Of a stretch of DNA of 24,000 nucleotides, positions 4,711 to 23,743 are shown piece by piece. The position numbers were made by a program, and so were the translations under genes. The notes below the pieces were generated by a model, which was not told the DNA's origin, ran no database searches, and saw only the letters and a program-made list of their open reading frames with translations. Source of the DNA: Ruania zhangjianzhongii (GTDB taxonomy: Bacteria; Actinomycetota; Actinomycetes; Actinomycetales; Beutenbergiaceae); the NCBI RefSeq assembly GCF_008000995.1, contig NZ_CP042828.1, positions 2,260,882 to 2,284,881 on the forward strand, written 5' to 3'. How positions within the stretch are numbered: position 1 is the first letter of the stretch; each line of letters starts with the position of its first letter.

Positions 4711-4863
4711 CCCGGGCCCGGTTCCTCGACCGGCACCCGACCACGCGACTGGACGACATCCATTGCTCCGGGCGGGGTGGGTTCAGGTGGTGAGTGCACG
4801 GACCTCGGCCACTCGCGGCAGTCTCATCGCGCGGGCGCCGGACATCGGTGCCAGGGTCGAAGG

Positions 4864-6246: not shown

Positions 6247-6282
6247 TGTCACAGGTGAGCCGAGCATCTTGTCTTCGGGGTG
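6247..6282 (+). promoter_or_regulatory. Candidate ECF41-type promoter: TGTCACA-n16-TGTC, within the 13-mer TGTCTTCGGGGTG
   Basis: TGTCACA lies at 6247-6253, followed by a 16-nt spacer and TGTC at 6270-6273. As I recall, the published ECF41 target motif is TGTCACA-n16-CGTC. The 13-mer ends 33 nt before ATG 6316. The same 13-mer recurs at 7413-7425. Confidence 0.4.
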
Positions 6283-6315
6283 ACAGGTACGCAGAGCCGG
6301 AGGAGGGTGGGAGGT

Positions 6316-9213: not shown

Positions 9214-9605
9214 GCCGGGTCGTCACCCGCTGAGCCCATCACCGGTCGCAGCTCCACGGTCTCGTCCGGGCCGGCGAACCTGGCAGCGATCTGCTCGGCC
9301 CGCTCCGGGCTGGCCACGTCGATGAGGAAGAACCCGGCCAGGTGCTCCTTGGTCTCCGAGTAGGGGCCCGCGGTGGGGACCGGTGCGCCGTCGGCCCACC
9401 GGTACAGCCTCGAGGTGGTCGGATCGCCGAGCGCCTCCCCGCCGAGGAGCTCACCGGCCGCCTGCATCTCGCCGAGGGTCTCCTCGAAATCGGCGTTCAG
9501 CTGCTCCCGGACCTCAGCGGGCAGCTGCTGGTGTGCCGCCAGGTAGTCGGCAGTGGGGTGGCCCCACGGCTGCGGGTTGGAATGGATCAGCAGCACGTAC
9601 TTCAT
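9210..9605 (-). CDS. YCII-related / DGPF domain protein
   Basis: 131 aa. MKYVLLIH...GGEALGDPTTS...GPYSETKEHLAGFFLIDVASPERAEQIAARF is a typical YciI/DGPF pattern. A GAGGAG RBS lies 6 nt upstream of ATG 9605. The gene is translationally coupled to the downstream sigma factor. Confidence 0.8.
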   Translation of the reverse strand: MKYVLLIHSNPQPWGHPTADYLAAHQQLPAEVREQLNADFEETLGEMQAAGELLGGEALGDPTTSRLYRWADGAPVPTAGPYSETKEHLAGFFLIDVASPERAEQIAARFAGPDETVELRPVMGSAGDDPA

Positions 9606-9753: not shown

Positions 9754-11310
9754 CTAGGTCGTCTCCTGAGTCACCTCGGTGTGCACGCTGGTGGCCAGCG
9801 GCACCTCCTTGAGGAAGATCAGGGCGACCAGTGCCACCACCGCCAGCGGCACCAGGAACGCGAAGATCGGCATCAGCGCGTGGTTGTAGGCGTGCACGAT
9901 CACGTCGCGAAGCTCCTCCGGGAGCGCGTTGACACCGGCCGGGGTGAGCGAGTTGATCGCCATGCCGTCCGGCACCCCGCCGGCGCTAGGCAGACGCGCG
10001 GTGAGCTCGGCGGTCAGCCGGGAGGCGAACACCGAACCCACCACGGCCGACCCGAGCGTGGCCCCGACCTGACGGAAGTAGTTGTTCGACGCCGTCGCCG
10101 TGCCCACGATCGCGTTCGGGAAGGTGTTCTGCACGATCAGGGTGAGGATCTGCATGCTCATCCCGATCCCGAGGCCGAACAGGCAGATGTAGGCGCACAG
10201 CACTATCAGCGGAGATTCGACGGTCAGAGTGGAGATCAGCAGCATGCCGATCGCCATCACCACGGACCCGGTCAGCGGGAATGCCTTGTACCGCCCGGAC
10301 CGGGACACCATCTGCCCGGAGACCACCGAGGCCACCAGCAGGCCACCCATCATCGGGATCATCAGCAGTCCCGCCTCGGTGGCATCCACCCCGGTGACCA
10401 TCTGCAGGTAGGTGGGCATGTAGCCGATCGTGCCGAACATCATCACCCCCACCGAGAGGCTGGCGACGGTGGTCAGGGCGAAGTTCCGCTCGCGGAAGAG
10501 GCCCAGGGGGATGACCGGGCTGCTCGCACGGGACTCGGCCCAGACGAACAGGCCCGCCAGGGCCAGGAACGCCACGGCCAGACCGATGATCTGCGGGGAG
10601 AGCCAGTCGAACTCGTGCCCGCCCCAGGTGGTGACCAGCACCAGCGCGGTGGTGGCGCCGGCGAGCAGCGCCATGCCCAGGTAGTCCAGCCGGGGCCGGC
10701 TCGCCGAGGCACGGCGGGGCAGGTGCAGGAGCAGGCTCACCGCACCGATCGCCAGCGCACCCAGGGGCAGGTTGATCCAGAACGCCCAACGCCAACCGGG
10801 GCCCTCGGTGAACCAGCCACCGAGCAACGGCCCGGCCACTGAGGAGACGGCGAACACGGCACCGAGAGCGCCCATGTACTTCCCACGTTCCCGGGCAGGG
10901 ACGACGTCGGCGATCGCGGCCTGGGACAGGATCATCAGCCCGCCGGCGCCAAGGCCCTGGATCACCCGAGCGAGGATCAGCGCCGCCATGTTCGGGGCGA
11001 GACCGCCGATCACGGACCCGGCGATGAACAGGGCGATCGCGGCGAGCAGTACGGGTTTGCGGCCGAGCTGGTCGCTGATCCGCCCGTAGACCGGCATCAT
11101 GATGGTGGAGGCGAGGATGTAGCTGCTGATCACCCAGGTCATCTGGTCGACCCCGTGCAGCTCGCCGACCATGGTTGGCAGGGCGGTGGCGAGGACCGTC
11201 TGGTTCAGCGATGCCAGCAACATCGTGACCATCAGTGCGGCGAACAGCAGGCCCACGTTCGTGGGTCGTGATTCATCCTCTTCCGGAGCGGGTATTCGGG
11301 ATGAAGGCAC
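9754..11310 (-). CDS. MFS transporter, DHA2 (EmrB/QacA, 14-TMS) drug:H+ antiporter family
   Basis: 518 aa. LASLNQTVLATALPTMVGEL, GRISDQLGRKPVLLAAIALF, ARVIQGLGAGGLM and about 14 hydrophobic segments are DHA2 hallmarks. The GTG 11310 start is uncertain because no clear RBS is present. Confidence 0.85.
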   Translation of the reverse strand: MPSSRIPAPEEDESRPTNVGLLFAALMVTMLLASLNQTVLATALPTMVGELHGVDQMTWVISSYILASTIMMPVYGRISDQLGRKPVLLAAIALFIAGSVIGGLAPNMAALILARVIQGLGAGGLMILSQAAIADVVPARERGKYMGALGAVFAVSSVAGPLLGGWFTEGPGWRWAFWINLPLGALAIGAVSLLLHLPRRASASRPRLDYLGMALLAGATTALVLVTTWGGHEFDWLSPQIIGLAVAFLALAGLFVWAESRASSPVIPLGLFRERNFALTTVASLSVGVMMFGTIGYMPTYLQMVTGVDATEAGLLMIPMMGGLLVASVVSGQMVSRSGRYKAFPLTGSVVMAIGMLLISTLTVESPLIVLCAYICLFGLGIGMSMQILTLIVQNTFPNAIVGTATASNNYFRQVGATLGSAVVGSVFASRLTAELTARLPSAGGVPDGMAINSLTPAGVNALPEELRDVIVHAYNHALMPIFAFLVPLAVVALVALIFLKEVPLATSVHTEVTQETT

Positions 11311-11399
11311 GCACGAACACTACGCATGTAGATTACACATCACAACCTGGCAGCCGGCTGGCGGTCGGTCGGCACGACCTGGTCTCAGGTCGATCAGGA

Positions 11400-11466
11400 G
11401 GTGGCGACGGCGTCCCGTGGGTGCGAATCAGCGGGTGGCGACGGCGTCCCGTGGGTGCGAATCAGC
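11400..11466. repeat. Tandem duplication: two perfect 33-bp copies (period 34) of GGTGGCGACGGCGTCCCGTGGGTGCGAATCAGC
   Basis: The copies at 11400-11432 and 11434-11466 are identical and separated by a single G. A partial ATCAG at 11394-11398 precedes copy 1. Copy 2 contains the stop codon (11462-11464) of the minus-strand VOC gene. Confidence 0.9.
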
Positions 11467-12142
11467 CGGCGCAGTGGTAGCCGTACAGGTCGTCCTGGGT
11501 GCCGTTCACCCAGAGCTGGTGACCGTCCGGGATCTGGACCAGGAGGGTGCGGTTGTAAGCCTCGTCCACCACGGTGGCCCGCACTCCGGCCTCGCTGAGC
11601 CGAGTGCTGAGTGCGTCCAGATCACCGGAGTGCTCCAGGGCCAGCTCGAGCGCTACGGACGGTGCCCGGTGCCAGGCCACCTGCCCTCCGCCGTCGGCCG
11701 TGAAGTCCTTCCAGTTGCCAGAATCGGAGGCGAGCCGGGGCTGCAGGCCCAGGCCGGTGAGGATCGCAGTGGGTTCGTCCGGATCCGGGCCGTACCAGAT
11801 CGGCATGATCGCCACCTGCGTCTGGCCAGAGGCGAGCGTGGGGGTGGGGGAGTCCTCGACGGCGGGACTCACCGTGATCGTGGTGCCGTCCGTGGCGCCG
11901 ACGGCAGGCTCGGCGACGGTGGCGACCGTTTCGGCGGTGGCCAGTGCTGCGCTCGGGTCGGTGACCAGGATGTCCAGGTGGGTGGTGCCGGCGGCGGTGG
12001 CCTCGGTGGTTTCGTGCACGGTGAGCTGGCCGCCACCGGTATAGCGTCCGGGCTCGCCGGTGGGGGAGAAGCCGAGGATCGGGGCGACTCGCTGCCACCA
12101 GCTGAGGTCGGTGGTGGTGTAGACGGCGTGCACCGTGGTCAC
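11462..12142 (-). CDS. Two-module VOC (glyoxalase/bleomycin-resistance/dioxygenase fold)-like protein
   Basis: 226 aa. Two beta-alpha-beta-beta-beta-like modules are visible ([22 protein letters not shown]... and [24 protein letters not shown]...HQLWVNG). GTG 12142 overlaps the RHH stop (GTGA). The family call is made by eye only. Confidence 0.5.
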
Positions 12143-12285
12143 TGGTCAGCCTCCGCGAGATAGCCGGACATCACGCGTTCCACCAGAGCGGACAAGGACT
12201 CCTCCTCGTCGATGGCGCGGTGCTTGATCTGGCGAACCAGGTCCGCCGGCAGATACACGTTGAACTGCACCTTGGCTTCTCGCAT
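12139..12285 (-). CDS. Ribbon-helix-helix (CopG/Arc/MetJ-like) DNA-binding protein
   Basis: Counted from ATG 12285, the 48-aa product is [48 protein letters not shown]. This is a classic RHH layout of beta-strand, helix, helix. The longer ORF beginning at 12360 adds a Cys/Gly-rich leader that is unlikely to be real. Confidence 0.65.
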
Positions 12286-12388
12286 GCTAGCAGTGTAGCA
12301 ACACCCTGAGTGCGGGCCCTGGCCATCGGGACACTCGGCAATCTGGACGGCGATCTTCACGGGCCAAGCCGCCCTTTCAGTGCCGCCC

Positions 12389-12418
12389 TTGCATTAGATC
12401 CAGAATCCTGGATATTGT
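12389..12418 (+). promoter_or_regulatory. Sigma70/HrdB-like promoter TTGCAT-n18-TATTGT with an embedded palindrome ATCCAG-aatc-CTGGAT
   Basis: A locally AT-rich patch sits in GC-rich DNA. The -35-like TTGCAT lies at 12389-12394 and the -10-like TATTGT at 12413-12418. Inverted-repeat arms lie at 12398-12403 and 12408-12413. GTG 12426 lies 7-8 nt after the -10 and has no SD, which suggests a leaderless mRNA. Confidence 0.4.
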
Positions 12419-12425
12419 CTGGTTC

Positions 12426-13340
12426 GTGGCCGTTCCCGGGATTCTGATGTCGCGCGCAGGTTTCGCCGCGATGCGCCTCGCCCAGCGCCTCTCCGCGCTC
12501 TCGGCGGGCGACCGGATCCCGAAGTTCGAAGACCTGGCCACCGAGCTCGGCTGCGGGAAGGGCACTGTCCAGGCGGGCTTCGACCTGCTCGGCGAGGCGG
12601 GCGGGCTGCGGCTACGCTCCCGCGGACGGCTGGGCACCTTCGTGGACGAGATCGACCACACCGTGCTCTGGCGGCTCGCCGGGCAGCGATCGGTATCGGT
12701 CGCGATGCCGTTGCCCTACTCGCGCCGCTACGAGGGGCTGGCAACGGGTCTGCATGCCAGTTTCGCGGATGCCGGTATCCCGCTGACCCTGATGTTCATG
12801 CGCGGATCGGTGGCCCGGCTGCGGGCGCTGGCCGAGGGCCGCGCCGACTTCGTGGTGATGTCCGCCCTGGCGGCCGGTAGCAGCGATGACCTCGAGATCG
12901 TGCACAACTTCGGACCGGGCAGCTATGTGGCCGCCCACGCCCTCATCCTCGCCGACGGCTGCACCGCCGACACCCCCGGCCTGCGGGTGGGAGTCGACCC
13001 GGCCTCGGAGGACCAGGTGCGTCTGGTGGATCGGGCCTTTGGTCCCCTCCCCGGTGCGCAGCGAGTCGAAGTCTCCTACAACCAGCTCGAATCGGCGTTC
13101 CGCGACGGGCGCATCGACGCCACGGTGTGGAACGTCGATGAGATCCGCGCGCACATCAGTGCGCCGGTGAGTATCGAACCGCTGGCACTCGCACGCGATG
13201 CGGCCAATACGCAGGCGGTGATCGTCCGGGCGGCCACCGAGGTGCCGGTACCGGTCGGTGTCCGGGCTGCGCTCACCGCTGCGACTGTTCTCGACCGGGC
13301 CCACGACGTCGTCGCGGGCCGTGCAACCCCGACCTATTAG
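12426..13340 (+). CDS. yhfZ: YhfZ-family transcriptional regulator (GntR-like winged HTH plus a periplasmic-binding-protein-like YhfZ C-domain)
   Basis: The 304-aa ORF has the N-terminal HTH IPKFEDLATELGCGKGTVQAGFDLLGEAGGLRLRSRGRLGTFV. It is followed by an approximately 230-aa alpha/beta domain (VSVAMPLPYSRRYEGLATGL...RVGVDPASEDQ...). It heads a cluster with the other yhf-type genes. Alternative starts are ATG 12447 and ATG 12471. Confidence 0.75.
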   Translation: MAVPGILMSRAGFAAMRLAQRLSALSAGDRIPKFEDLATELGCGKGTVQAGFDLLGEAGGLRLRSRGRLGTFVDEIDHTVLWRLAGQRSVSVAMPLPYSRRYEGLATGLHASFADAGIPLTLMFMRGSVARLRALAEGRADFVVMSALAAGSSDDLEIVHNFGPGSYVAAHALILADGCTADTPGLRVGVDPASEDQVRLVDRAFGPLPGAQRVEVSYNQLESAFRDGRIDATVWNVDEIRAHISAPVSIEPLALARDAANTQAVIVRAATEVPVPVGVRAALTAATVLDRAHDVVAGRATPTY

Positions 13341-13349
13341 GAGCAGCAG

Positions 13350-13730
13350 ATGGATCCGACGCTGCAGGAGCGACTCGACATCTTCCGCGCGATGCCCGCC
13401 GTACCGGACGAGGCGGTCGACCTGGTCGCGGCCGAGCTCACCCGGCTCGACCCGGCACAGACACTGACCGACGACCAGGCCGGCAGCTTTGTCTCGCACG
13501 CCGTCAACGCGCTGGCGCGACTGTCCGCCGGAGACGTCTCGGTCGAAGCGCCCAGCGACACCGTCTACCAGCAGGTGCGGGATGAGGACCCCCAGGCGGA
13601 AGAGCGGGCGCGCGCCTTCGTCGAGCGCGTGCAGGCCCGGCTCGGCCGAGCACTGCCGGAGGCGGAACTGAAGTTCATCACCATCCACTTCGCTGCGTTG
13701 GCGCAGCACACCAGAAAGGAGCACCCGTGA
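13350..13730 (+). CDS. yhfY: Stand-alone PRD-domain protein (YhfY-like)
   Basis: 126 aa, all-helical. Two His residues sit in PRD-like contexts: FVSH(50)AVNAL and FITIH(113)FAAL. Their 63-residue spacing is typical of the two phosphorylatable histidines of one PRD. An AGGAGC RBS precedes ATG 13350. Confidence 0.7.
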   Translation: MDPTLQERLDIFRAMPAVPDEAVDLVAAELTRLDPAQTLTDDQAGSFVSHAVNALARLSAGDVSVEAPSDTVYQQVRDEDPQAEERARAFVERVQARLGRALPEAELKFITIHFAALAQHTRKEHP

Positions 13731-14086
13731 AGATCATCACCGGCGGTGTCGGAAAGGCCCAGGTGGCCGAGGTCCTGAAACCCCTCCTGCGACCCGAGGA
13801 CGAGGTGAGCGTCGGCAGTGACATGGATGCCGCGATCAAGCTGCAGTCCGGCCAGGCCGACTTCTTCCTCGGCACCTGCCACACCGGTGCTGGTGCAAGC
13901 CTGGGGGTGCTGGTCGGCCTCCTCGGCGGCGACCGATGCCACACCTTTGCCCGGAAGATCCCCGCTGCCGAAGACGTGGACCACGCGCTGGCGAGCGGCG
14001 CGGTCGCGCTCGGCTTCTCCGTGGACCAGATCACCGAGGCGGTACCGGTGATCTACGCCGCGCTGCAGCGCCGGAACGAGGGCTGA
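13727..14086 (+). CDS. yhfU: DUF2620 (YhfU-like) small glycine-rich protein
   Basis: 119 aa: MKIITGGVGKAQVAEVL...SDMDAAIKLQSGQADFFLGTCHTGAGASLGVLVGLLG. The RBS GAAAGGAG lies 5 nt upstream. GTG 13727 overlaps the upstream stop (GTGA). Confidence 0.7.
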   Translation: MKIITGGVGKAQVAEVLKPLLRPEDEVSVGSDMDAAIKLQSGQADFFLGTCHTGAGASLGVLVGLLGGDRCHTFARKIPAAEDVDHALASGAVALGFSVDQITEAVPVIYAALQRRNEG

Positions 14087-14087
14087 G

Positions 14088-15485
14088 ATGGGTCACCTCC
14101 CGATGGACGTCACCGCTGGCGGCGTCAGCTTCCTGCTCTGGCAGTCGATCGTCGTCATGGCGGTGACGGCGATCGGTGCGATGATGGCGCACTCCGCTCT
14201 TGCGGTGTTCAACGACGGCGCCCGGCCGTTCATGCTTGACTTCGTCCGCGGTAAGACGAACCGGGCGGCGACGGCCACGATCGTGTTCGGGCTCTCCGCC
14301 GGGTTCATCTTCGGGCTCGGGGCTCCGATGGCCCTGGCCACCGGGGTGCTCAATCCCTGGCTGATCTTCCTGCCTGCCGAGATCCTCGGTCTGCTCGCCC
14401 CCTGGCGCTGGTTGGCAGGTGTGGCCGGTGCGGCTTGGGGCGCGGTGTGCGCGTTCGGTCTGGGTACGGTCAACTCCGTCGCTCAGCAGCTTCCGGTCGA
14501 CTTCATCACCGCCCTGCAGGTACTGGGCGACCCGATTCTGTGGCTGTTCTCGATGTTCCCGGTGCTCGCGGTGGCCCGCCAGTTCGGGCGACTTCGCGGG
14601 TTCATCACCCTGCTGGTCGAGGCGGGCATGATCGTCCTCGCCACCCAGCTCTGGCCGGACATGTTCGCCGGGTCCCTGGCGATGGCGCTCGGTGTGGTGC
14701 TGCTGCTGGTGTTCGCGCTGACCAAGGACCGCACCGCCAAGAGCGAGGAGAAGGTAGCACTCGCGGCGATGAACGCGGACCAGCGCACCGCGGCCGCCGA
14801 GGCGGAGGCCACCAGCGCAGCGGCGGTGAACCAGCTGTTCGGGCCGAACGCGCTCCGGCTCCGCAAGAACATCGTCTGGCTCGCGCTCCTCGGTGGCGCG
14901 GTGGCCGCCCTGTCCGCCACCCACATCTTCGGTGGGGGAGAGGCCACCAGCTTCCTGCTCGCCGACGGCAAGGTGACCGAAGCGGCCCAGGTCGACTTCT
15001 ACCGGGCGTTCGGGTTCATTCCGCTGATTGCCACCACCGCCCTCGCCTCCGGGGCCTACGCGATGGCCGGGTTCACCTTCGTCTACCCGGTCGGCTACCT
15101 GATCGGCGCGGGCTTCGACTCGCCGGCGCTCGCACTGGCCGTGGCGTTCGTCGCCGGTGCCGTGGTGATGGCGCTCGAAGTGCTGGCCCTGTCCTGGGTG
15201 GGGAACTGGCTACAGCGCTGGCCGAGCGTGCGCGACTCGGCCGACCATATCCGCAGTGCGATCACCGAGTCGCTGCAGGTGGCGATCCTGGTCGGTTCGG
15301 TCATGGCGGCCAGCCAGATGGGTGGCGGATTCGGAATCTTCCTCGTCGGTGGCCTCTACCTGGTCAACGAGGCGCTCGGCCGGCCCGTGGTCCGGATGGC
15401 AGCCGGCCCGGCTGCGGTGATCGTCAGCGGCGTGCTGCTCAACCTGCTCTATCTGGTCGGGCTGTTCACCCCGATCGCTGCTTAG
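14088..15485 (+). CDS. yhfT: YhfT-like polytopic inner-membrane protein (putative permease)
   Basis: 465 aa with about 12 hydrophobic segments. They fall into two halves separated by a charged, Ala-rich loop (KDRTAKSEEKVALAAMNADQRTAAAEAEATSAAAVNQ). The gene starts 1 nt after the yhfU-like stop. The assignment rests on position and size within a yhf-type cluster. Confidence 0.7.
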   Translation: MGHLPMDVTAGGVSFLLWQSIVVMAVTAIGAMMAHSALAVFNDGARPFMLDFVRGKTNRAATATIVFGLSAGFIFGLGAPMALATGVLNPWLIFLPAEILGLLAPWRWLAGVAGAAWGAVCAFGLGTVNSVAQQLPVDFITALQVLGDPILWLFSMFPVLAVARQFGRLRGFITLLVEAGMIVLATQLWPDMFAGSLAMALGVVLLLVFALTKDRTAKSEEKVALAAMNADQRTAAAEAEATSAAAVNQLFGPNALRLRKNIVWLALLGGAVAALSATHIFGGGEATSFLLADGKVTEAAQVDFYRAFGFIPLIATTALASGAYAMAGFTFVYPVGYLIGAGFDSPALALAVAFVAGAVVMALEVLALSWVGNWLQRWPSVRDSADHIRSAITESLQVAILVGSVMAASQMGGGFGIFLVGGLYLVNEALGRPVVRMAAGPAAVIVSGVLLNLLYLVGLFTPIAA

Positions 15486-15493
15486 GAGAACCG

Positions 15494-16459
15494 ATGCTCA
15501 TCCAGACGGTCCTCGGCCCGATCCAGCCCGATGCGGTCACCGGACCGGTACTCCCGCACGAGCACCTTGCGCTCGACCTGCGCACCGAGGCGGACGCCGG
15601 TGGCATGCTGTCCGGCCGGCATGCGGCCGCGGTGGCCGCCGAGCTCGCCGACGCCCGCGAGCGGGCGGACCTGAGCCTGGTGATCGATCAGACCTGCCGG
15701 GGGATGGGTCGGGACCCGGACACCCTGCAGACGATCGCTGCTGACTCCGGTGTGCCCGTGGTGGCCAGCACCGGCTGGTACTACCAGCGTTTCCACCCCG
15801 AGGGCGAACCGGGACCGGACCTGGACGCCGCGACCGAACTGCTGCTGACCGATCTGAGGGTGGGGATCGATGGCACCGACGTGTGCGCCGGTCTGATCGG
15901 TGAGATCGGTACCCACGGGCCCGCGCCGACCTCGGCCGAACGGACCAGCCTGCGCGCCGCGGGCCGCGCCAGTGCCCGCACTGGCGCACCGATCGCCACC
16001 CACGCCCACCTGGGCATCGGGGCGCTGGGCCAGCTCGACGTGCTGGCCGACTCCGGTGCCGACCTGGCTCGGGTGTGCGTCGGCCACCAGGATCTGATCG
16101 ACGACGTCGACCAGCACGCCCGGATCGCCGACGCCGGTGCCTACCTCGCCTTCGATACTGTGGGCAAGGAGTCCTACCAGGGGGACGACGTTCGGGTGCG
16201 GATGCTGCTCGCGCTCCTCGAGCAGGGTCTGGGCGCCCATCTGCTGCTGTCCAACGACATCTCCCGGCACTCCTATCTGCGCAGCGAAGGCGGGCAGGGG
16301 TATGCGCACGTGCTCTGCCCGTTCGCGGACCGGCTGCGGGCCGCCGGCGTCGACGGAGCCACCCTCACCATGCTCTACCGGGACAACGCCCTGCGCTGGC
16401 TCACCGGGAGCGAGGACATCGGCCCGGCTGCGGCCCTGCGGATCGGGGTGCGGTCATGA
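15494..16459 (+). CDS. php: Phosphotriesterase-homology protein (Php/YhfV; amidohydrolase superfamily, COG1735)
   Basis: 321 aa counted from ATG 15494 (RBS AGGAGA at 15484-15489). The full binuclear-metal ligand set is visible: H-x-H (LPHEHL), bridging Glu (LIGEIGT), His (IATHAH), His (VGHQD) and Asp (LSNDIS). The remainder of ORF 14435 upstream is a frame artefact overlapping yhfT. Confidence 0.9.
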   Translation: MLIQTVLGPIQPDAVTGPVLPHEHLALDLRTEADAGGMLSGRHAAAVAAELADARERADLSLVIDQTCRGMGRDPDTLQTIAADSGVPVVASTGWYYQRFHPEGEPGPDLDAATELLLTDLRVGIDGTDVCAGLIGEIGTHGPAPTSAERTSLRAAGRASARTGAPIATHAHLGIGALGQLDVLADSGADLARVCVGHQDLIDDVDQHARIADAGAYLAFDTVGKESYQGDDVRVRMLLALLEQGLGAHLLLSNDISRHSYLRSEGGQGYAHVLCPFADRLRAAGVDGATLTMLYRDNALRWLTGSEDIGPAAALRIGVRS

Positions 16460-17562
16460 CCGGGCCGGTGCTGCCCCGCACCCATCCATTGCCGCACCTG
16501 GACGTCGATGCAGCCTTCGGCTTGCAGCAGCGCCTGGTGGCAGCCGCCGGCGACGAGCTGCCCGGGGCAGCCATGTTCACCGCCGACGCCGGGGTCCGGC
16601 CAGAGACAGGACGGCCGCGGACCACGGCGGCCGTTGAACGCGTCCTCGCCACCGCGTTCGGTGCGCAGGCTGCCTGCCTGGTCCAAGGTGCCGGTACCGG
16701 AGCGATCCGGACCGCCCTGTCCGCAGGGCCCTGGGAGGCCGGCGACCGGCGGCTGCTGGTGCACGACGCCCCCGACTACTCCACCACCGCCACCACGTTC
16801 CGCGACGGGATGGTCCAGCCGGTCCGGGCTGACTTTGACCTCCCCGACGCCGTCCAGCGGGCCCTGGCCGACCCCGACGGCCCCGCCTGGGTGTACATCC
16901 AGCACAGCCGGCAGCGTCTGACCGACAGCTTCGACCCGATGCAGGTGGTCGCTGCGGCGCGGGCCGCAGGCCGGCGGGTGATCGTGGACGAGAACTACGC
17001 GGCGGTGCGCACCCCGGCGATCGGCACCGAGCACGGTGCCAGCGCCTCCGCCTTCTCCCTGTTCAAGCTGCACGGACCCGAAGGCATCGGGGTGGTGCTT
17101 GGTGATGACGACCTGATCGAGACCGCCCACCGCGCCAACTACTCCGGCGGCGGTCAGGTGCAAGGCCACCAGGCGCTGCACGCTCTGCAGGCCCTGGTCA
17201 ACGCCCCGCTGAACTGGGCGCGGCAGTCGGCCGAGGTGCACCGCCTCGCCGGCCTGCTCGGCCAGGGCGCGGTCCCCGGGATCGTCGACGCGAAGGTCGC
17301 GAACGTGCAGGATCTGTGTGTCGTCGCGCTGCTCGCCGAGCCGGAGGCCGACCGTGTCCGGGCCGCCGCTGCCACCCACGGGGCCGCGCCCTACCCGGTC
17401 GGCTCGAACAGCCGGTTCGAGGTGGCACCGATGATCTACCGGCTGTCCTCCTCAGCGCTGTCCGCCCAGCCCGAGCTGCGCGACTGGACGCTGCGGATCA
17501 ACCCCATGCGCGCCGGTGCCGACCTCGTGGTCGACATCCTCCGCCGCTCGATCCCGAACTGA
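16456..17562 (+). CDS. yhfS: YhfS-like fold-type-I PLP-dependent enzyme (aminotransferase/lyase-like)
   Basis: 368 aa counted from ATG 16456, which forms an ATGA overlap with the php stop. The Gly-rich loop is VQGAGTGAIRTAL, followed by DENYA and a putative PLP-Lys in SAFSLFKLHGPEG. Confidence 0.7.
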   Translation: MTGPVLPRTHPLPHLDVDAAFGLQQRLVAAAGDELPGAAMFTADAGVRPETGRPRTTAAVERVLATAFGAQAACLVQGAGTGAIRTALSAGPWEAGDRRLLVHDAPDYSTTATTFRDGMVQPVRADFDLPDAVQRALADPDGPAWVYIQHSRQRLTDSFDPMQVVAAARAAGRRVIVDENYAAVRTPAIGTEHGASASAFSLFKLHGPEGIGVVLGDDDLIETAHRANYSGGGQVQGHQALHALQALVNAPLNWARQSAEVHRLAGLLGQGAVPGIVDAKVANVQDLCVVALLAEPEADRVRAAAATHGAAPYPVGSNSRFEVAPMIYRLSSSALSAQPELRDWTLRINPMRAGADLVVDILRRSIPN

Positions 17563-17570
17563 GGGGGCTC

Positions 17571-18743
17571 ATGTTCCTGTCGCTGACCCAGCGCCGTAAC
17601 CCGGCACTGCTCGATTCCGCCCGCGAACTGCACGCCTACGGTCGCATCGGTCCGGACACCTACGTGCTCGACCTGGACGTGATCACCGAGAACGCTCAGA
17701 CGCTGGCCGCCACGGCCGCCGGTCACCAGATCGAGCCCTGGTTCGTGACCAAGCAGATCGGCCGAGTGCCCCCGGTGGCCGCCGCGATCGCCCAGCACAT
17801 TCGCGCCGCCACGGCGATCGACGTCCGTGAGGCACGAGCGGTCACCGCTGCCGGAGTGCGGCTGGGCAACGTGGGCCATCTGGTCCAGGTGCCGCGCCGG
17901 GCGCTGCCGGAGATCCTCGCCTCCGGCCCGGCGTACGTCACCGTCTTCGACCTGGCCAACCTGCGCGCCGTGGCGGAGGCAGCGGCGGGGCTCGGGATCG
18001 TACAACCGGTGCTGCTGCGGATCGCCGGTGACCCGGCCACCACCTACCCCGGCCAGGAGGGCGGCATCGAACCCGCCGCCGTCGCGCAGGTCCTGGACCT
18101 CGCCGCCGGTCTGGAGCACGTCCAGATAGCCGGGGTGACCGCCTTTCCGTGCCTCCTCTTCGACGACGTTTCCGCCCAGGTCCGCCCCACCCCGACCGCC
18201 GACCGGGCGCTCGCCGCAGCCGATGTGCTCCGCACGGCCGGAATCGACCCGGTGATCAACCTGCCCAGTCAGTCCAGCTGCTCGACCATCCCGCTGGTGG
18301 CCGCGCTCGGTGGCACGCACGTCGAACCTGGCCATGCCCTGACCGGGACCACGCCCGAGCATGCCGTCCGGGACCACCTGCCCGAGCGCCCGGGCATGGT
18401 CTACGTCTCCGAGATCGCCCAGACCGAGCCGACACCGGCGGTCTTCGGCGGCGGTTTCTACGCCCGCGGGCATGCTCGGCAGGTGCTGCTCGGGCGCGGA
18501 CCGCAGCTGCGAGAGGCCACCCTGGTGGACACCCCAGCGGAGAACATCGACTACTACCGCCGGCTCCGCCTGGGGGGCGGGAGCGAGCCGGAGCTCGGGG
18601 AGGTCGCCCTGATGGCGTTCCGGACCCAGATCTTCGTGACCCGGTCCCAGGTGGCGGTCGTGGCCGGGATCCAATCCGGCAGCCCCCAGCTCGTCGGCCT
18701 GTTCGACGCCACCGGCCGAGAGCTCTCGGAGGTGGGCGGTTGA
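17571..18743 (+). CDS. yhfX: YhfX-like alanine-racemase-fold (fold-type-III PLP) protein
   Basis: 390 aa counted from ATG 17571 (RBS GAGGGGG). The sequence begins MFLSLTQRRNPALLDSARELH...YVLDLDVI, with a putative PLP-Lys in WFVTKQIG. It shows a TIM-barrel-like alternating pattern followed by a C-terminal beta domain. Confidence 0.75.
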   Translation: MFLSLTQRRNPALLDSARELHAYGRIGPDTYVLDLDVITENAQTLAATAAGHQIEPWFVTKQIGRVPPVAAAIAQHIRAATAIDVREARAVTAAGVRLGNVGHLVQVPRRALPEILASGPAYVTVFDLANLRAVAEAAAGLGIVQPVLLRIAGDPATTYPGQEGGIEPAAVAQVLDLAAGLEHVQIAGVTAFPCLLFDDVSAQVRPTPTADRALAAADVLRTAGIDPVINLPSQSSCSTIPLVAALGGTHVEPGHALTGTTPEHAVRDHLPERPGMVYVSEIAQTEPTPAVFGGGFYARGHARQVLLGRGPQLREATLVDTPAENIDYYRRLRLGGGSEPELGEVALMAFRTQIFVTRSQVAVVAGIQSGSPQLVGLFDATGRELSEVGG

Positions 18744-20011
18744 GTACCACGATCCTCGTCCTGGACGGGTTCGGGATCGGTGCCCTGCCGGACGCGGGTG
18801 ACCTGCGCCCGGGGGACGTTCGCGCGGACACGCTCGGCTCCCTGCTCGCATGGAGCCGGGACGAGCGCCGCAGCACCGCGAACATCCCGTGGTTGACCGC
18901 ACTCGGCCTGGCCGTCCTGCGCCCCGACCTGAACCTGCCCGCACCGCAGCCGGCGCCCGCGCACCTGGAGGTGACTGCCCGGCGCAGCGCCCTCGGCTAC
19001 CCCGGCGCGGACACCTTCGCCGGGCACCAGACGATGATGGGCGCGGACATGTCCCACGTGACCCATTGCCGGGTCGGGGAGCGGCTTGAGCAAGTACGGG
19101 AGGCACTTGAGCTCATCGGTCACCACACCGAGCTTCTCGACGGCCGGGCGGTGATCCTCGTCGACGGGCAGATGCTCGTCCACGACAACCTCGAAGCCGA
19201 CCCAGGACTGAACTGGAATGTGTCCGCACCGCTGGACAAGGTCCGGTGGGAGGACCTGCTGCACGCCGCCCAGGCCGTGCGCGCCGTGGCTCCGGTGGCG
19301 CGGGTGATCGCCGTCGGTGGCTACGCCGACGAGCCGTTGCCGGCCTACGTTCGCCCGGGGGAGGACGCCACGATCGGCCTGGACACCCCGACCAGCGGCT
19401 TCTACCGCAACGGCGGCCTGCAGGTGCGCCACCTCGGTGCCCCGCTCGACCATCACCGTCAGCTGCCGGAAGTTGCAGCCAACGCCGGCCTCCCGGTCAC
19501 CCTGATCGGGAAGGCCGCCGACATCCTCGCTACCGAGGCAGCGGTGGAACGCCGACCCGGAGTCGACACCGCCGCCGTGCTCGCCGACACCCTCGAGGCA
19601 TCCGGCCGACCGGGTCTGGTGATCACCAATGTCCAGCAGACCGACCTGTCCGGGCACCAGCAGGATCCCGGCCGCTACCTCGACCTGCTCGAACAGGTCG
19701 ACGTCGCGATCCCCGACCTGCTCCGCGCACTGGCACCCGGGGAGCAGTTCGTGGTGGTGGCCGACCACGGGAACGACCCGAGGATCGGGCACGCCTTCCA
19801 CACCCGTGAGTACGTCCCCGTGCTCGCCGCCGCCCGGACCACGGAACCGGCCATACCGGTCCGCCGCGGAGACGATCTGCCGTCGCTCGCCGACGTCGGC
19901 GCCTCCGTGGCGCTCAGCCTCGGCCTCGGCGAACACGCCCTCGGCCACGGCGACGCCCACCATCTGACCAGCAGCGAACCCGACCCCGCTACCAGGAGGA
20001 CCCATGCCTGA
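18740..20011 (+). CDS. yhfW: YhfW-like phosphopentomutase-type metalloenzyme (alkaline phosphatase superfamily)
   Basis: The start is probably TTG 18740, which forms a TTGA overlap with the yhfX stop. ILVLDGFGIG carries the metal-binding Asp. GADTFAGHQ carries the candidate Thr nucleophile in a GxDTxxGH context. VVADHGNDP and HTREYVPV are also present. All are phosphopentomutase-like motifs. Confidence 0.8.
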   Translation: MSTTILVLDGFGIGALPDAGDLRPGDVRADTLGSLLAWSRDERRSTANIPWLTALGLAVLRPDLNLPAPQPAPAHLEVTARRSALGYPGADTFAGHQTMMGADMSHVTHCRVGERLEQVREALELIGHHTELLDGRAVILVDGQMLVHDNLEADPGLNWNVSAPLDKVRWEDLLHAAQAVRAVAPVARVIAVGGYADEPLPAYVRPGEDATIGLDTPTSGFYRNGGLQVRHLGAPLDHHRQLPEVAANAGLPVTLIGKAADILATEAAVERRPGVDTAAVLADTLEASGRPGLVITNVQQTDLSGHQQDPGRYLDLLEQVDVAIPDLLRALAPGEQFVVVADHGNDPRIGHAFHTREYVPVLAAARTTEPAIPVRRGDDLPSLADVGASVALSLGLGEHALGHGDAHHLTSSEPDPATRRTHA

Positions 20012-20288
20012 GCGCACCGCCACCATCGCCTCGACCTCTGGCCTGCACGCCCGGCCCGCGAACCTGTTCGTCCAGGCCGTCCAGAGGGCCGGACTGCCGG
20101 TCCAGATCGCGCGGGCCGGCCAACCCGGCGTGGACGCGCGCAGCATCCTGTCGGTGATGGGTCTGGGGGCCAAGCATGGCGAGCAGGTGGTGCTCAGCAC
20201 CGACGCCGATGACAGCCAAGGGGCACTTGAGGACCTGGTCACGCTCTTGGAAACCGACCTGGACGCCGCCGAGAGCACTGACCGATGA
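20004..20288 (+). CDS. ptsH: Phosphocarrier protein HPr
   Basis: 94 aa. His15 sits in TSGLH(15)ARPA and the regulatory-Ser region reads DARSILSVMGLGA. The RBS is AGGAGGA at 19994-20000. The start overlaps the yhfW-like 3' end by 8 nt. Confidence 0.9.
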   Translation: MPERTATIASTSGLHARPANLFVQAVQRAGLPVQIARAGQPGVDARSILSVMGLGAKHGEQVVLSTDADDSQGALEDLVTLLETDLDAAESTDR

Positions 20289-21964
20289 CGCCTGGGACTG
20301 CCCGTGGTGCTGGCGTCGGGTATGGCGCCGGAATCGGCCTGGCCGTCCACGTGCCACCAGCGCCGGTCGCGCCCGAGCACGAGGCCGCCGAGGACATCGA
20401 GACCGCCACGGCCAGGATCCACGACGCGTTCGACCAGGTTGCCCGCGCGCTGACCGATCGGGCCGCGCACGCCACCGGCCCGCTCGCCGAGACGCTGGCC
20501 GCGGCCGCGACGATGGCGGCGGATCCCGCACTGACCGATCAGACCGTCCGGCAGGCCGGCGCGGGCTTCGGCCCGGCAACCGCTGTGACCCGGGCCGTCG
20601 AGAGCTTCGCCACCACCTTCCAGGAGGCCGGCGGCTATCTGGCCGAACGGGTGACCGACCTGGTCAGCGTCCGGGACCGGGTGGTCGCCCTGCTCCTCGG
20701 CCAAGACGAACCTGGCATGCCGGCACTGATCGGGCGGAGCGTGATCATCGCCGCCGATCTGGCCCCTGCGGACACCGCAGCGCTCGACCTGGACCTGATC
20801 GCCGGCATCGTCACTGCGGCCGGCGGTCCGACCAGCCACACGGCGATCATCGCCCGTCAGCTCGGTATCCCCTGCGTGGTCGGGGCAGCCGCCGCACTCC
20901 AGCTACCCGCCGGGGCCCGCATCCTGGTGGACGCCGCCAGCGGGACCGTGGTCGCCGACCCCGACGAGGAGAGGGTCGCCCTAGCCCTGCGCCGTGCCCG
21001 GCGACTCGCTGAGGTTGCCGAGGACGACCGGCCCGCCGCCACCAGCGACGGCCACCGGATCCAGCTCCTGGCCAACATCGGCACCCCGGAGGACGCGCTA
21101 CGCGCGGCGAGTACCGCCGTCGACGGCGTGGGACTGTTCCGTACCGAGATGCTGTATCTCGACCGGGCCGCCGCGCCCAGCTCCGCCGAACAGGTGGGTG
21201 TGTACCGGCAGGTGCTCGACGCATTCGACGGCCGCAAGGTCGTACTGCGCACCCTCGATGCCGGGGCAGACAAGCCGCTCACCTTCGCCACCGCTGACGG
21301 CGAGGCGAACCCCGCGCTCGGGCTGCGCGGCTACCGCACCGCGCGCCGGCACCCGGAGCTGCTCGAGGACCAGCTCGCCGCCATCGCCGAGGCTGCCACC
21401 GACCACCCATCCCCGGTATGGGTGATGGCGCCGATGATCAGTACCGCTGGTGAGGCGGCAGAATTCGCCGCGCGGGCCCGCTCGCACGGGATCACTACCG
21501 TCGGTGCGATGGTCGAGGTCCCCAGCGCGGCCCTGCTCGCCGACGAACTGCTCGCCCCGCTCGACTTCCTGTCGCTGGGCACCAACGACCTGACCCAGTA
21601 CGTGATGGCGGCCGACCGGCTCAGCACCGACCTCGCCGACCTGACCGACCGGTGGCAACCGGCCGTGCTCCGGCTGGTGGCGGCCACCGTCCGTGCCGGA
21701 AAGACGGCGGGGAAACCCGTCGGCGTGTGCGGGGAGTCGGCTGCCGACCCGTTGATGGCGCTGGTACTCACCGGACTGGGCATCTCCAGCTTGTCCATGT
21801 CTGCGCCGTCGGTCGGCGGAGTGCGCTATGCCTTACGCGCTCACGACCTGCGCGCCTGCCGCCGGATGGCCGAGGCGGCGCTGGCCGCCCCTGATGCTGC
21901 GGCCGCTCGCTCGGCGGCAGCGGCGCTGCTGGACGAGACGGTCCGGGAGACTCTGCACGTCTGA
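20285..21964 (+). CDS. ptsI: Phosphoenolpyruvate-protein phosphotransferase (PTS Enzyme I)
   Basis: 559 aa. The active-site His lies in GGPTSHTAIIARQLGIPCVVG. The PEP-binding region reads FRTEMLYL...LRTLDAGADKP...MVEVPSA...LSLGTNDLTQY. The catalytic Cys lies in VGVCGESAADP. The start forms an ATGA overlap with the ptsH stop. Confidence 0.95.
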   Translation: MTPGTARGAGVGYGAGIGLAVHVPPAPVAPEHEAAEDIETATARIHDAFDQVARALTDRAAHATGPLAETLAAAATMAADPALTDQTVRQAGAGFGPATAVTRAVESFATTFQEAGGYLAERVTDLVSVRDRVVALLLGQDEPGMPALIGRSVIIAADLAPADTAALDLDLIAGIVTAAGGPTSHTAIIARQLGIPCVVGAAAALQLPAGARILVDAASGTVVADPDEERVALALRRARRLAEVAEDDRPAATSDGHRIQLLANIGTPEDALRAASTAVDGVGLFRTEMLYLDRAAAPSSAEQVGVYRQVLDAFDGRKVVLRTLDAGADKPLTFATADGEANPALGLRGYRTARRHPELLEDQLAAIAEAATDHPSPVWVMAPMISTAGEAAEFAARARSHGITTVGAMVEVPSAALLADELLAPLDFLSLGTNDLTQYVMAADRLSTDLADLTDRWQPAVLRLVAATVRAGKTAGKPVGVCGESAADPLMALVLTGLGISSLSMSAPSVGGVRYALRAHDLRACRRMAEAALAAPDAAAARSAAAALLDETVRETLHV

Positions 21965-21986: not shown

Positions 21987-22000
21987 GGACCGATCGGTCC
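21987..22000. terminator. 14-bp perfect palindrome GGACCGATCGGTCC between convergent genes; a weak bidirectional terminator candidate
   Basis: Read directly. It lies in the 43-bp gap between the ptsI stop (21964) and the minus-strand stop (22008). The stem is only 5 bp with a 4-nt loop and there is no U-tract. Confidence 0.3.
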
Positions 22001-22007
22001 CCGGGGG

Positions 22008-22544
22008 TCACGGCCGCCGGGGTCCGGTAGAGATCAGGCGAGCGCTCTCGAGCAGGTCGTGCAGTTCCTGCGCGTCGTGGGCGAGGCCGATGGGTACCGA
22101 GGTGGTCTTGGCCTCGCCGACCAGCGCCACCATCAGTTGCCCGCGACTACTTCGTTGGATCTCGATGTCGCGGATGGTTGACCAGGACACCGCGGGCCGC
22201 AGCGGGCCGGCCTGACGCGCTACCCGGACGCCGTCGGTGGTGAGCACCAGGCCGGGGCTGGCGCCGATGAGGCGGCGCACTGCGAGGACTACCAGCGGGA
22301 CCATGATCAGCACGGCGACCAGGAAGAGCAGGATCACCGCTGCGGCCAGGGCCCGGCGGCCGGCGGAGAGCTCCGCGTCCGCCAGATCCGCAAGAGAGCC
22401 CGGGATCGTCGCGATCGTCAGGATGAGCATCAGCAGCGTGACCGCGCCGCCCAGGATCAGCTCGCGCCTGGCGTAGGCAGTGCTGAAATCAACCTCGACG
22501 CGCCCGGCGGCGCGGAACTGGTGCAGGGTGTGCTCGATGGTCAT
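22008..22544 (-). CDS. Small two-TM membrane protein with a PH-domain-like C-terminal region (paralogue A)
   Basis: 178 aa counted from ATG 22544, which forms an ATGA overlap with the paralogue B stop. The layout is MTIEHTLHQFRAAGRVEV..., two hydrophobic helices, then PGLVLTTDGVRV...VSWSTIRDIEI...QELHDLLESARL. The N-terminal 137 aa of ORF 22008-22955 overlap paralogue B and are not coding. Confidence 0.6.
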   Translation of the reverse strand: MTIEHTLHQFRAAGRVEVDFSTAYARRELILGGAVTLLMLILTIATIPGSLADLADAELSAGRRALAAAVILLFLVAVLIMVPLVVLAVRRLIGASPGLVLTTDGVRVARQAGPLRPAVSWSTIRDIEIQRSSRGQLMVALVGEAKTTSVPIGLAHDAQELHDLLESARLISTGPRRP

Positions 22545-23089
22545 GCCTGTTGGCCTCCGGTGGCGACGAGTCGGGCGTTCTCGAGGAGGTAGTGCAGCTC
22601 CTGGGGGTCGTACTGCATGCTTCGCGGGACATAGACCGGGCGTGCCGCGGTCATCAGGGTGACCACCGGTTGCCCCGAGCCTCGCTGCTGGAGCGTGATC
22701 GAGTCGATCGCGTTCCATGGCACTGGTGTCTTGGGCCTGGCCAACGCTGTGCCGACGGACACTCCCTGGCGACTGAGCAGCAGCCCTGGCGCCGGTGACT
22801 CGGCGTTCATGCGTTCGCGAACAAGGATGATCGTCCACAGCATGAGTCCGACCGGCACGGCGAACAGCACCAGAAGGCCGACCATCGCCGGGACGGCCCA
22901 GCCGGGCCCATCCTCGCGAGTAGCCTCGGCCATCAGCGAGGTGGTGTAGACGCACACGGCGCAGACGGCAACGAGCAGCAGCAGGCCGATGATCGCGCTG
23001 ATCAGGTCTTTGCGGCAGCGCGCCCGGTCGTAGCCCACCTGGGTCTGTCCGGTGCTGCGGAACTGGCGCAGGACATCGTCGATGGTCAT
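22541..23089 (-). CDS. Small two-TM membrane protein with a PH-domain-like C-terminal region (paralogue B)
   Basis: 182 aa: MTIDDVLRQFRSTGQTQV..., two TM helices, then PGLLLSRQGVSV...VPWNAIDSITL...QELHYLLENARL. The RBS AAGGGGAG lies upstream of ATG 23089. Confidence 0.6.
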   Translation of the reverse strand: MTIDDVLRQFRSTGQTQVGYDRARCRKDLISAIIGLLLLVAVCAVCVYTTSLMAEATREDGPGWAVPAMVGLLVLFAVPVGLMLWTIILVRERMNAESPAPGLLLSRQGVSVGTALARPKTPVPWNAIDSITLQQRGSGQPVVTLMTAARPVYVPRSMQYDPQELHYLLENARLVATGGQQA

Positions 23090-23133
23090 GAGCTCCCCTT
23101 GGTATGCGCCGGCGATCTCCGCACCATAGCGGG

Positions 23134-23667
23134 CTAGCGCGGGGGTGGGGCGAACATCCGATGGGCAGAACTCACCAACGCATAGAGCCGTTCATCCTCG
23201 AACTCCAGGCGGATCGGCACCGTCTTGCCCTTCTTCCCGGACATGATCAGCACCACGGTGCGGTGAACGATCCGCAGGGCGCGCACCTCGGTCACCTGGG
23301 GCCAAGGCACCGACGCGGTCGCGCGTCTGCCGGGTGCCCCGACGGCGGCGCCCTGCGCGGTCAGCACCAGGCCGGGGTGCTGACCGTTCACCCGGCCCGC
23401 AGCGAGTGCCGCCAGCCAGGCAGCGAGGCCGACCAGCCCGGCGAGCACACCGGCGCACACGGCGAAGATCGCCACGCCGGCCGGGTCCGGCTCGCTGCTC
23501 AGTCCGGTGATCTGCCACAGCCGCACCAGGCCGGCCAACCCCGCGACGACGACGAACGCCAGGGCAATCAACGAGCCGATCAGGTGGGCGACGGCGAAGC
23601 GGTGCTGGTAACGCACGGCGAGGTACCCGGTATGCCGGAGCTGCGCGAGTGCCTGGTCGACGGTCAC
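23134..23667 (-). CDS. Small two-TM membrane protein with a PH-domain-like C-terminal region (paralogue C)
   Basis: Alignment with paralogues A and B favours GTG 23667 as the start (VTVDQALAQLRHTGYLAV...). ATG 23736 would add a 23-aa Pro/Thr-rich extension that the paralogues lack. Two TM helices are followed by PGLVLTAQGAAV...VPWPQVTEVRAL.... Confidence 0.55.
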   Translation of the reverse strand: MTVDQALAQLRHTGYLAVRYQHRFAVAHLIGSLIALAFVVVAGLAGLVRLWQITGLSSEPDPAGVAIFAVCAGVLAGLVGLAAWLAALAAGRVNGQHPGLVLTAQGAAVGAPGRRATASVPWPQVTEVRALRIVHRTVVLIMSGKKGKTVPIRLEFEDERLYALVSSAHRMFAPPPR

Positions 23668-23743
23668 AGCTTCTGCCCCCCATTTCGGTGATTGCTGCCG
23701 GGTAGCGTAGCCCGGCGTCGGGGTGGGCGGATACATTCGAGGG

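Follow-up and report, generated by a model that had tools for sequence, protein, structure and literature searches.

We analysed a stretch of 24,000 nt from the genome of Ruania zhangjianzhongii (accession number NZ_CP042828.1, positions 2,260,882 to 2,284,881 of the forward strand), an actinobacterium placed in the Micrococcales, family Ruaniaceae. This stretch, hereafter called the window and numbered from its first letter, has a G+C content of about 70 % and carries on its + strand, at 12426–21964, a same-strand run of ten genes, i.e. yhfZ-yhfY-yhfU-yhfT-php-yhfS-yhfX-yhfW-ptsH-ptsI. The ten genes are a single operon-like unit, in which the full yhf set is joined to the genes of HPr and Enzyme I (EI), the two general proteins of the phosphoenolpyruvate (PEP)-dependent phosphotransferase system (PTS). 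What is new here is the yhf operon with ptsH-ptsI built in; the uncharacterised yhf cluster itself is already known, and the arrangement is not a demonstrated new PTS. Among the explanations that we weighed, we lean, with a little less than even confidence, towards a relay from EI through HPr to the PRD protein YhfY that would regulate the operon or its uptake module, so that the PTS would regulate the pathway without phosphorylating its substrate.

The yhf/php cluster is conserved in E. coli and many other bacteria, and structures have been solved for three of its products, but its function is still unassigned. We found no function for the cluster in RefSeq, in the names given by PDB depositors or in the literature searched, nor any functional study, which agrees with a preliminary description of this DNA, made from the sequence alone, in which the substrate was called unassigned. 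No genomic clue so far points more clearly to a dependence of the pathway on the PTS phosphorelay than this joining of EI and HPr to the cluster, and the universal PRD protein, a DUF2620–PRD fusion and the lack of a kinase strengthen this clue.

Structure of the operon and assignment of its genes

The run was delimited from the open reading frame (ORF) listing and frame-specific G+C content at third codon positions (GC3). Its nine junctions measure +9 nt (yhfZ/yhfY), −4 nt (yhfY/yhfU), +1 nt (yhfU/yhfT), +8 nt (yhfT/php), −4 nt (php/yhfS), +8 nt (yhfS/yhfX), −4 nt (yhfX/yhfW), −8 nt (yhfW/ptsH) and −4 nt (ptsH/ptsI), thereby reproducing exactly the run and all nine values of the preliminary description. 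Genes overlap at five of the nine junctions and the widest gap is 9 nt; therefore, an internal terminator cannot fit in the operon, as had been claimed. The position formerly given as the beginning of the run, 12389, is not a gene start and lies in the −35 hexamer of the candidate promoter, the coding sequence of yhfZ beginning at 12426. GC3 is uniform (0.85–0.89) across all ten genes, and the identical ten genes were recovered by a codon-usage gene caller, which was trained on 19 Pfam-supported window genes with these ten among them. The NCBI protein calls are identical in sequence for five of the ten, i.e. PtsI, HPr, YhfY, YhfT and YhfZ, the last with 304 aa. YhfU is 100 % identical to the DUF2620 protein of R. 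zhangjianzhongii.

Families were assigned with Pfam and NCBIfam profiles against curated cut-offs, and these searches upheld the assignments made beforehand for all ten ORFs. The first gene, yhfZ (12426–13340, GTG start), encodes a GntR-type helix-turn-helix (HTH) regulator with a YhfZ_C ligand-binding domain (NCBIfam YhfZ_full 280.7 bits, cutoff 260; Pfam HTH_41 and YhfZ_C, the latter with a domain structure in PDB 2ozz). It is followed by yhfY (13350–13730, ATG start) for a stand-alone single PRD protein of 126 aa, as described before, with a Pfam PRD match above the cutoff (27.9 bits, cutoff 23), by yhfU (13727–14086, GTG start) for a DUF2620 protein of 119 aa (Pfam DUF2620 117.5 bits), and by yhfT (14088–15485, ATG start) for a polytopic membrane protein of 465 aa, a presumed permease (Pfam YhfT 462.6 bits). 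The php gene (15494–16459, ATG start) encodes a phosphotriesterase (PTE)-homology protein, i.e. a hydrolase of the amidohydrolase superfamily (Pfam PTE 205 bits; NCBIfam equivalog 198 bits, under its cutoff of 486), which, among solved structures, is closest to those of E. coli Php (1bf6 and 4lef). Two pyridoxal phosphate (PLP) enzymes come next: yhfS (16456–17562, ATG start) encodes one of fold-type I, class V aminotransferase-like (Pfam YhfS-like_C 117.6 bits and Aminotran_5), and yhfX (17571–18743, ATG start) one of fold-type III, alanine-racemase-like (Pfam Ala_racemase_N and YhfX-like_C; PDB 4kbx, ‘Uncharacterized protein YhfX’, at E 2.9e-79). The last yhf gene, yhfW (18740–20011, TTG start), encodes a phosphopentomutase-like metalloenzyme (NCBIfam PRK12383 mutase 360 bits, cutoff 254), which is also matched by Pfam Metalloenzyme.

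All eight E. coli yhf families are present in the window, contiguous and on one strand. Compared with the E. coli K-12 cluster (b3383–b3376), protein sizes are equal and full-length identity is 33–43 % for seven of the eight proteins (e.g. YhfZ 33 %, Php 37 % and YhfS 43 %), whereas E. coli YhfY, also of equal size, is similar to window YhfY only at the level of the PRD domain. The gene order differs, as had been noted, being Z-Y-X-W-php-U-T-S in E. coli and Z-Y-U-T-php-S-X-W in the window, and ptsH-ptsI, appended to the window cluster, is absent from that of E. coli.

The two appended genes encode intact PTS proteins. The 94 aa HPr encoded by ptsH (20004–20288, ATG start; TIGR01003 80.6 bits, cutoff 47.9) keeps the equivalents of His15 and Ser46 and the conserved GLHARPA motif, and in the 559 aa EI encoded by ptsI (20285–21964, ATG start; TIGR01417 368.7 bits, cutoff 341.7) H185 and C482 align with H189 and C502 of E. 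coli EI. The start of ptsH overlaps the stop of yhfW by 8 nt, with an AGGAGG Shine–Dalgarno sequence inside yhfW, and the ATG of ptsI overlaps the stop of ptsH (ATGA). No Pfam family of the Enzyme II (EII) components EIIA, EIIB or EIIC, including PTS_EIIA_1, PTS_EIIA_2 and EIIA-man, was detected on any called ORF of the window, which confirms the absence of canonical EII components reported earlier. Likewise, no EII genes were found over 12 kb on the upstream side (window) or over 5.5 kb on the downstream side (syntenic contig L001).

Promoter region and putative operator

The promoter candidate (12389–12418, + strand) consists of a −35 hexamer TTGCAT (12389–12394), an 18-nt spacer and a −10 hexamer TATTGT (12413–12418). 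A perfect 16-bp palindrome, ATCCAGAATCCTGGAT, lies within the spacer at 12397–12412 and abuts the −10 hexamer; judging from its position, it is probably the YhfZ operator. The GTG start codon of yhfZ follows 7 nt after the −10 element and, therefore, the yhfZ mRNA is probably leaderless. From this layout we infer a leaderless promoter that is autoregulated by YhfZ.

Phylogenetic footprinting, with up to four mismatches allowed, located the promoter–palindrome motif upstream of yhfZ, and equally far from the start codon, in 81/82 actinobacterial loci (including Georgenia, Aeromicrobium, Jiangella, Cellulomonas and Streptomyces), and thus confirms the single upstream promoter candidate that had been proposed. 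The conserved form, present at window positions 12389–12426 and in loci L002–L087, reads cTTGnCAnt-ATCCAGAATCCTGG(A/T)T-ACTGT, followed by 7–9 nt and then GTG or ATG. A simple sigma-70 consensus promoter scan and an intrinsic-terminator scan called nothing, i.e. neither the promoter candidate nor a 3′ hairpin.

Distribution of the yhf cluster and of the ptsH-ptsI coupling

A survey of one-genome-per-species representatives yielded 458 YhfT relatives, and in the best 80 of these 458 loci, all from Actinomycetota, the order Z-Y-U-T-php-S-X-W holds for every gene recovered, a few loci ending at contig ends. The same order is found in Cetobacterium (Fusobacteriota), the order Y-U-T-php-S-X on a Bacillus thuringiensis plasmid, and in L. 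rhamnosus the genes for the PRD, DUF2620 and membrane proteins bear consecutive accessions. Since this order is common to Actinomycetota, Fusobacteriota and Bacillota, the actinobacterial order is widespread and the E. coli order is the exception. A PRD gene lies within the yhf cluster in nearly all loci, across phyla, and no EII families were detected in the cluster flanks of 25 actinobacterial genomes.

The complete pair ptsH-ptsI stands behind yhfW only in the window and in three related metagenome contigs (YhfT 90 %, PtsI 73 % and HPr 67 % identical). The −8 and −4 overlaps, the AGGAGG and the junction sequence CAGGAGGACCC(A/G)TGCCTGAGCGCAC are conserved in these three ptsHI-bearing contigs, and the retention of overlaps and AGGAGG at such identities of PtsI and HPr argues for a maintained arrangement. 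A Cellulomonas metagenome-assembled genome (L030) is a second, partial case of a PTS gene directly after the yhf cluster, i.e. a lone ptsH (16118–16399), without ptsI, 130 nt past yhfW and followed by a NagB-like gene. Being confined to one narrow lineage, the ptsHI coupling is no general trait of the yhf cluster.

The surroundings of ptsI in other bacteria were compared for the 80 closest metagenome PtsI relatives (47–63 % identical to window PtsI). No yhf genes were found near any of these 80, and their immediate neighbours are mainly PTS_IIB, PTS_EIIC, PTS_EIIB, PTS_EIIA_2, DeoR and PfkB. In two of the closest relatives (PtsI 58–63 % identical), the operon reads DeoR(FruR)-PfkB(FruK)-EIIA(Fru)-EIIBC(Fru)-HPr-EI, a fructose-PTS operon in which, as in the window, ptsH-ptsI are the last two genes and the junctions overlap. 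In contrast to this operon, the window has no DeoR, PfkB or EII gene before ptsH and eight yhf genes instead. Considering that the closest ptsHI genes end fructose-PTS operons, the yhf genes of Ruania occupy the place of the fructose EII genes.

As a separate observation, in the metagenome relative L172 (YhfT 82 % identical), which has no ptsHI after yhfW, yhfZ is immediately preceded on its own strand by a gene for a DeoR-family regulator and by a 193-aa ORF of no assigned family (3630–4962); DeoR is also the regulator of the ptsHI-bearing fructose-PTS operons in related bacteria.

YhfY as a candidate contact point of the PTS

The protein most likely to connect the pathway to HPr is YhfY, which consists of one PRD without any other domain, i.e. 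it has neither an RNA-binding (CAT) or DNA-binding domain nor a duplicated PRD. Its His50 and His113 are invariant in 82/82 actinobacterial orthologues and lie 63 residues apart, close to the canonical spacing of about 60 residues of PRD histidines (LicT-type PRDs). In having a PRD with two histidines at this spacing, YhfY resembles the PRD regulators, such as the BglG/LicT antiterminators and the MtlR/LicR/LevR-type activators, but, in contrast to these, the DNA-binding protein of the window is a separate one, the GntR-type YhfZ. To our knowledge, HPr and EII domains are the only known partners of PRDs.

YhfU and YhfY are moreover linked in one polypeptide by the protein P0408 (267 aa), which joins a full-length DUF2620 domain, a Pro/Ser/Ala-rich linker and a full PRD with both histidines. 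Its combination of a PRD with a small alpha/beta Cys-containing domain recalls the MtlR-type activators, which combine a PRD with an EIIB-like domain. The DUF2620 family is small, with 129 clusters among 1.84 billion representatives, and no fusion to HPr, EIIA, EIIB or EIIC was found among these 129 clusters. Two further apparent fusions, Php–DUF2620 (P0356) and DUF2620–YhfT (P0392), were judged from their sequences to be read-through or frameshift artefacts.

In the relay that we favour, YhfZ would probably repress the promoter via the palindrome until an inducer binds and, as the layout suggests, EI and HPr would be made together with the pathway because YhfY is their target. PEP would phosphorylate EI, EI would phosphorylate HPr, and HPr would phosphorylate YhfY, the presumptive point of contact with the PTS, at His50 and/or His113. 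Depending on whether it is phosphorylated, YhfY would in turn control its partners, most likely the uptake-and-first-step module YhfU/YhfT, the repressor YhfZ, or both; thus, the expression or activity of the pathway would follow the PTS/PEP state of the cell.

Several points weigh against such a regulatory relay. E. coli YhfY (L007, 11061–11423) keeps the first PRD histidine (H48) and has Asn at the position of H113, and we found no characterised precedent for a stand-alone single PRD without a nucleic-acid-binding domain. The model also leaves the phosphate source of the substrate unexplained, because the cluster lacks a kinase. The preliminary description had raised the question of how often ptsH or ptsI accompanies the cluster, and the survey shows this to be rare, since among the 72 representative loci with at least 2 kb past yhfW ptsI follows yhfW in none and ptsH in one, the Cellulomonas locus L030. 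Even relatives with YhfT 82 % and 72 % identical lack ptsHI after yhfW, as do the clusters of E. coli, Cetobacterium and Bacillus. The rare coupling may hence be a lineage-specific rearrangement without special meaning, and a promoter may lie inside yhfW.

Taken to its end, this argument leaves no specific link between the two parts of the operon: the general ptsH-ptsI would have been displaced from a fructose-PTS operon to behind yhfW, would serve EIIs encoded elsewhere and would owe their expression to a promoter within the operon or to read-through, and compaction alone would account for the tight junctions. Such a history would fit the limitation of the arrangement to one narrow clade, and in every other genome examined the yhf cluster works without neighbouring ptsHI. 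Related actinobacteria, too, embed general ptsHI genes in the operon of one sugar, where they are still general PTS components. However, the 8-nt and 4-nt overlaps and the Shine–Dalgarno sequence inside yhfW are kept across about 30 % protein divergence, a landing in one of the few PRD-carrying operons is unlikely by chance, Cellulomonas provides a separate case of ptsH after yhfW, and there are no EII genes in the 12 kb upstream (window) or the 5.5 kb downstream (L001). We consider a mere displacement quite unlikely. The regulatory relay through YhfY is, on the other hand, supported by the anatomy of the operon with its conserved junctions and uniform GC3, the intact HPr and EI residues, the PRD histidines, the DUF2620–PRD fusion, the Cellulomonas ptsH, the EII-like position of the yhf genes and the promoter motif in 81/82 loci.

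YhfU and YhfT as possible PTS components

Another explanation for the presence of EI and HPr is that the substrate itself is phosphorylated at the expense of PEP by a non-canonical module, in which EI and HPr would pass the phosphate via YhfY (His) and/or YhfU (Cys51) to the compound that YhfT imports. The mechanism could be true group translocation or a Dha-like intracellular phosphorylation, with YhfY, YhfU and YhfT as a new EII-like family, and the phosphorylated product would then pass to the mutase, the isomerase, the hydrolase and the PLP enzymes. YhfU and YhfT were both modelled with AlphaFold2 from actinobacterial alignments only, because a mixed E. coli/actinobacterial YhfT profile gave only more Streptomyces sequences.

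The model of YhfU (pLDDT 94.5) has RpiB as its top two PDB matches in Foldseek, i.e. 5ifz (TM 0.67, probability 1.00) and 3he8, followed by generic flavodoxin-like/receiver folds, and no EIIB is among its top 50 PDB matches. In YhfU, whose best fold matches are the RpiB/LacAB isomerases, a Cys-x-Thr-Gly motif follows beta-strand 3, where the catalytic Cys66 of RpiB also lies; it is part of the invariant motif G-T-C51-H-T-G-A-G-A-S in a glycine-rich loop, with C51 present in 87/87 sequences. YhfU differs from RpiB in being about 30 residues shorter and in having its own conserved set of residues, i.e. K10, D32, D45, H52, H72, R76 and D100. In hhalign comparisons, C51/T53 align weakly with the catalytic Cys66/Thr68 of RpiB (E 0.07), and a weak alignment of this loop was likewise obtained with that of UlaB, which carries Cys~P (E 0.096); since the two alignments are similar, the motif alone does not decide, and it is the fold that favours RpiB. 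Pfam gave a weak LacAB_rpiB signal, below threshold, for E. coli YhfU over the stretch with the Cys motif (E 0.065), none for window YhfU, and no PTS_IIB signal for YhfU. RpiB/LacAB enzymes typically act on PTS-derived sugar phosphates, e.g. LacAB in PTS-lactose/tagatose-6-phosphate operons. As a leading reading, an EIIB role of YhfU was set aside in view of the fold search and is kept only as a part of the substrate-phosphorylating module.

The model of YhfT (pLDDT 87.6, pTM 0.84) is all-helical and has no fold match in the PDB (best TM ≤0.22, Foldseek). Using hhalign, we detected neither profile similarity to ChbC or UlaA nor a two-fold internal repeat, the halves being aligned at E 0.099. 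An EIIC role of YhfT is thus unsupported by Pfam up to E 10, by Foldseek against the PDB and by hhalign against ChbC and UlaA.

Several findings would suit a phosphorylation of the substrate: a kinase is missing from the cluster, although YhfW belongs to a phosphomutase family and YhfU has the fold of a sugar-phosphate isomerase; additional ninth genes of the NagB-like or double-SIS sugar-phosphate deaminase/isomerase type recur behind yhfW (see below); synteny of the Y-U-T triad extends over Actinomycetota, Fusobacteriota and Bacillota, including the consecutive accessions in L. rhamnosus; a DUF2620–PRD fusion exists; the invariant Cys51 loop aligns to UlaB about as well as to RpiB; and the yhf genes take the place of EII genes in related ptsHI operons. 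These are opposed by the RpiB-like structure of YhfU, with its Cys after beta-strand 3 as in RpiB and with no EIIB among the top 50 matches, by the Pfam signal, which is weak for LacAB_rpiB and missing for PTS_IIB, and by the lack of detectable similarity of YhfT to solved EIIC structures in Foldseek and hhalign. Furthermore, the window has no EIIA, DUF2620 is fused to no HPr or EII domain among the 129 clusters, and we know of no case in which a PRD passes phosphate to a substrate. On balance, a PEP-dependent phosphorylation of the substrate by this route appears rather unlikely.

A precedent would be the dihydroxyacetone kinase DhaKLM: there, a substrate inside the cell receives its phosphate from PTS proteins, and EI and HPr serve a reaction other than transport, the pathway being without an ATP-dependent kinase. 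In contrast to that system, the window contains no homologues of DhaK, DhaL or DhaM, and its EI matches DhaM only weakly. If YhfY, YhfU and YhfT did form a PEP-dependent phosphorylation/uptake module fed by HPr, i.e. a new PTS family without canonical EIIA, EIIB or EIIC, which we consider rather unlikely, the phosphosugar enzymes in a cluster without a kinase would be explained and the ptsHI operon of Ruania would be the self-contained form. A demonstrated phosphorylation of the substrate would mean that the PTS has one more family.

The preliminary description had gone further and suggested an undescribed PTS-dependent uptake system. In that form the suggestion is unsupported, considering that YhfU is RpiB-like, that YhfT is unlike any solved EIIC, that the window has no EIIA and that ptsHI coupling occurs in a narrow lineage only. 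Its more general idea, that the cluster is fed or controlled by PEP-dependent phosphotransfer, is plausible in view of the PRD histidines (82/82) and the phosphosugar-type enzymes without a kinase, but does not demonstrate a new uptake system.

Nature of the pathway

The cluster encodes a phosphopentomutase-family protein (YhfW), the RpiB-like YhfU, the PTE-family protein Php and the PLP enzymes YhfS and YhfX, with no kinase among the yhf products. Characterised PTE-family relatives of Php include phospho-sugar lactonases, according to a statement in PMC10971088 that cites Korczynska et al. 2014. The NCBIfam match of Php likewise points to phospho-sugar lactonase relatives.

Additional genes in other loci give some indication of where the pathway leads. 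In five Aeromicrobium-type loci (L012, L013, L015, L016 and L024), yhfW is followed on the same strand by a ninth gene for a double-SIS protein of about 340 aa, two SIS stretches being seen in the representative L015, and in two other lineages the ninth gene encodes a NagB-like Glucosamine_iso protein (L175, 11623–12399; L030, 16506–17294). Based on the families encoded, these ninth genes suggest an amino-sugar or ketoamine phosphate as the end of the pathway. On a plasmid of Cetobacterium somerae (L177), an amidase-family gene (11294–12325) is inserted between yhfT and php in a cluster that otherwise reads Z-Y-U-T-php-S-X-W, which hints at an amide-linked substrate. In E. coli, the yhf cluster adjoins the fructoselysine (frl) operon. 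Taken together, we infer that an intermediate of the pathway is an amino compound carrying phosphate, probably derived from an amino sugar.

Flanking regions

A GC-rich inverted repeat (21995–22026, no strand assigned) with 13-nt arms and a 6-nt loop was located by repeat search 30 nt past the stop of ptsI. It is without a T tail, and could possibly act as a factor-independent terminator between convergent genes. Three minus-strand ORFs without Pfam match (22008–23736) separate ptsI from a NIF3-family gene in the window. Since the NIF3 gene lies only about 90 nt after ptsI in the related contig L001 (9327–9419), these ORFs look like an insertion.

On the other side of the operon, a small ribbon-helix-helix/CopG-like ORF of 47 aa (12143–12285, − strand) overlaps the start of a 226-aa ORF without Pfam match (11462–12142); this pair (11462–12285), divergent from yhfZ, may be toxin–antitoxin-like. 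No RNA family was detected in the window with Rfam. Three genes for extracytoplasmic function (ECF)-type sigma factors lie in the window within 9 kb and are unrelated to the yhf-pts operon, the entries of this sigma-factor region being 182–1084, 6280–7278, 7912–9213 (− strand) and 9210–9605 (− strand). One of the ECF-type sigma genes encodes a SnoaL-like C-terminal domain, and another, with DUF6596, overlaps a YCII-family gene by 4 nt.

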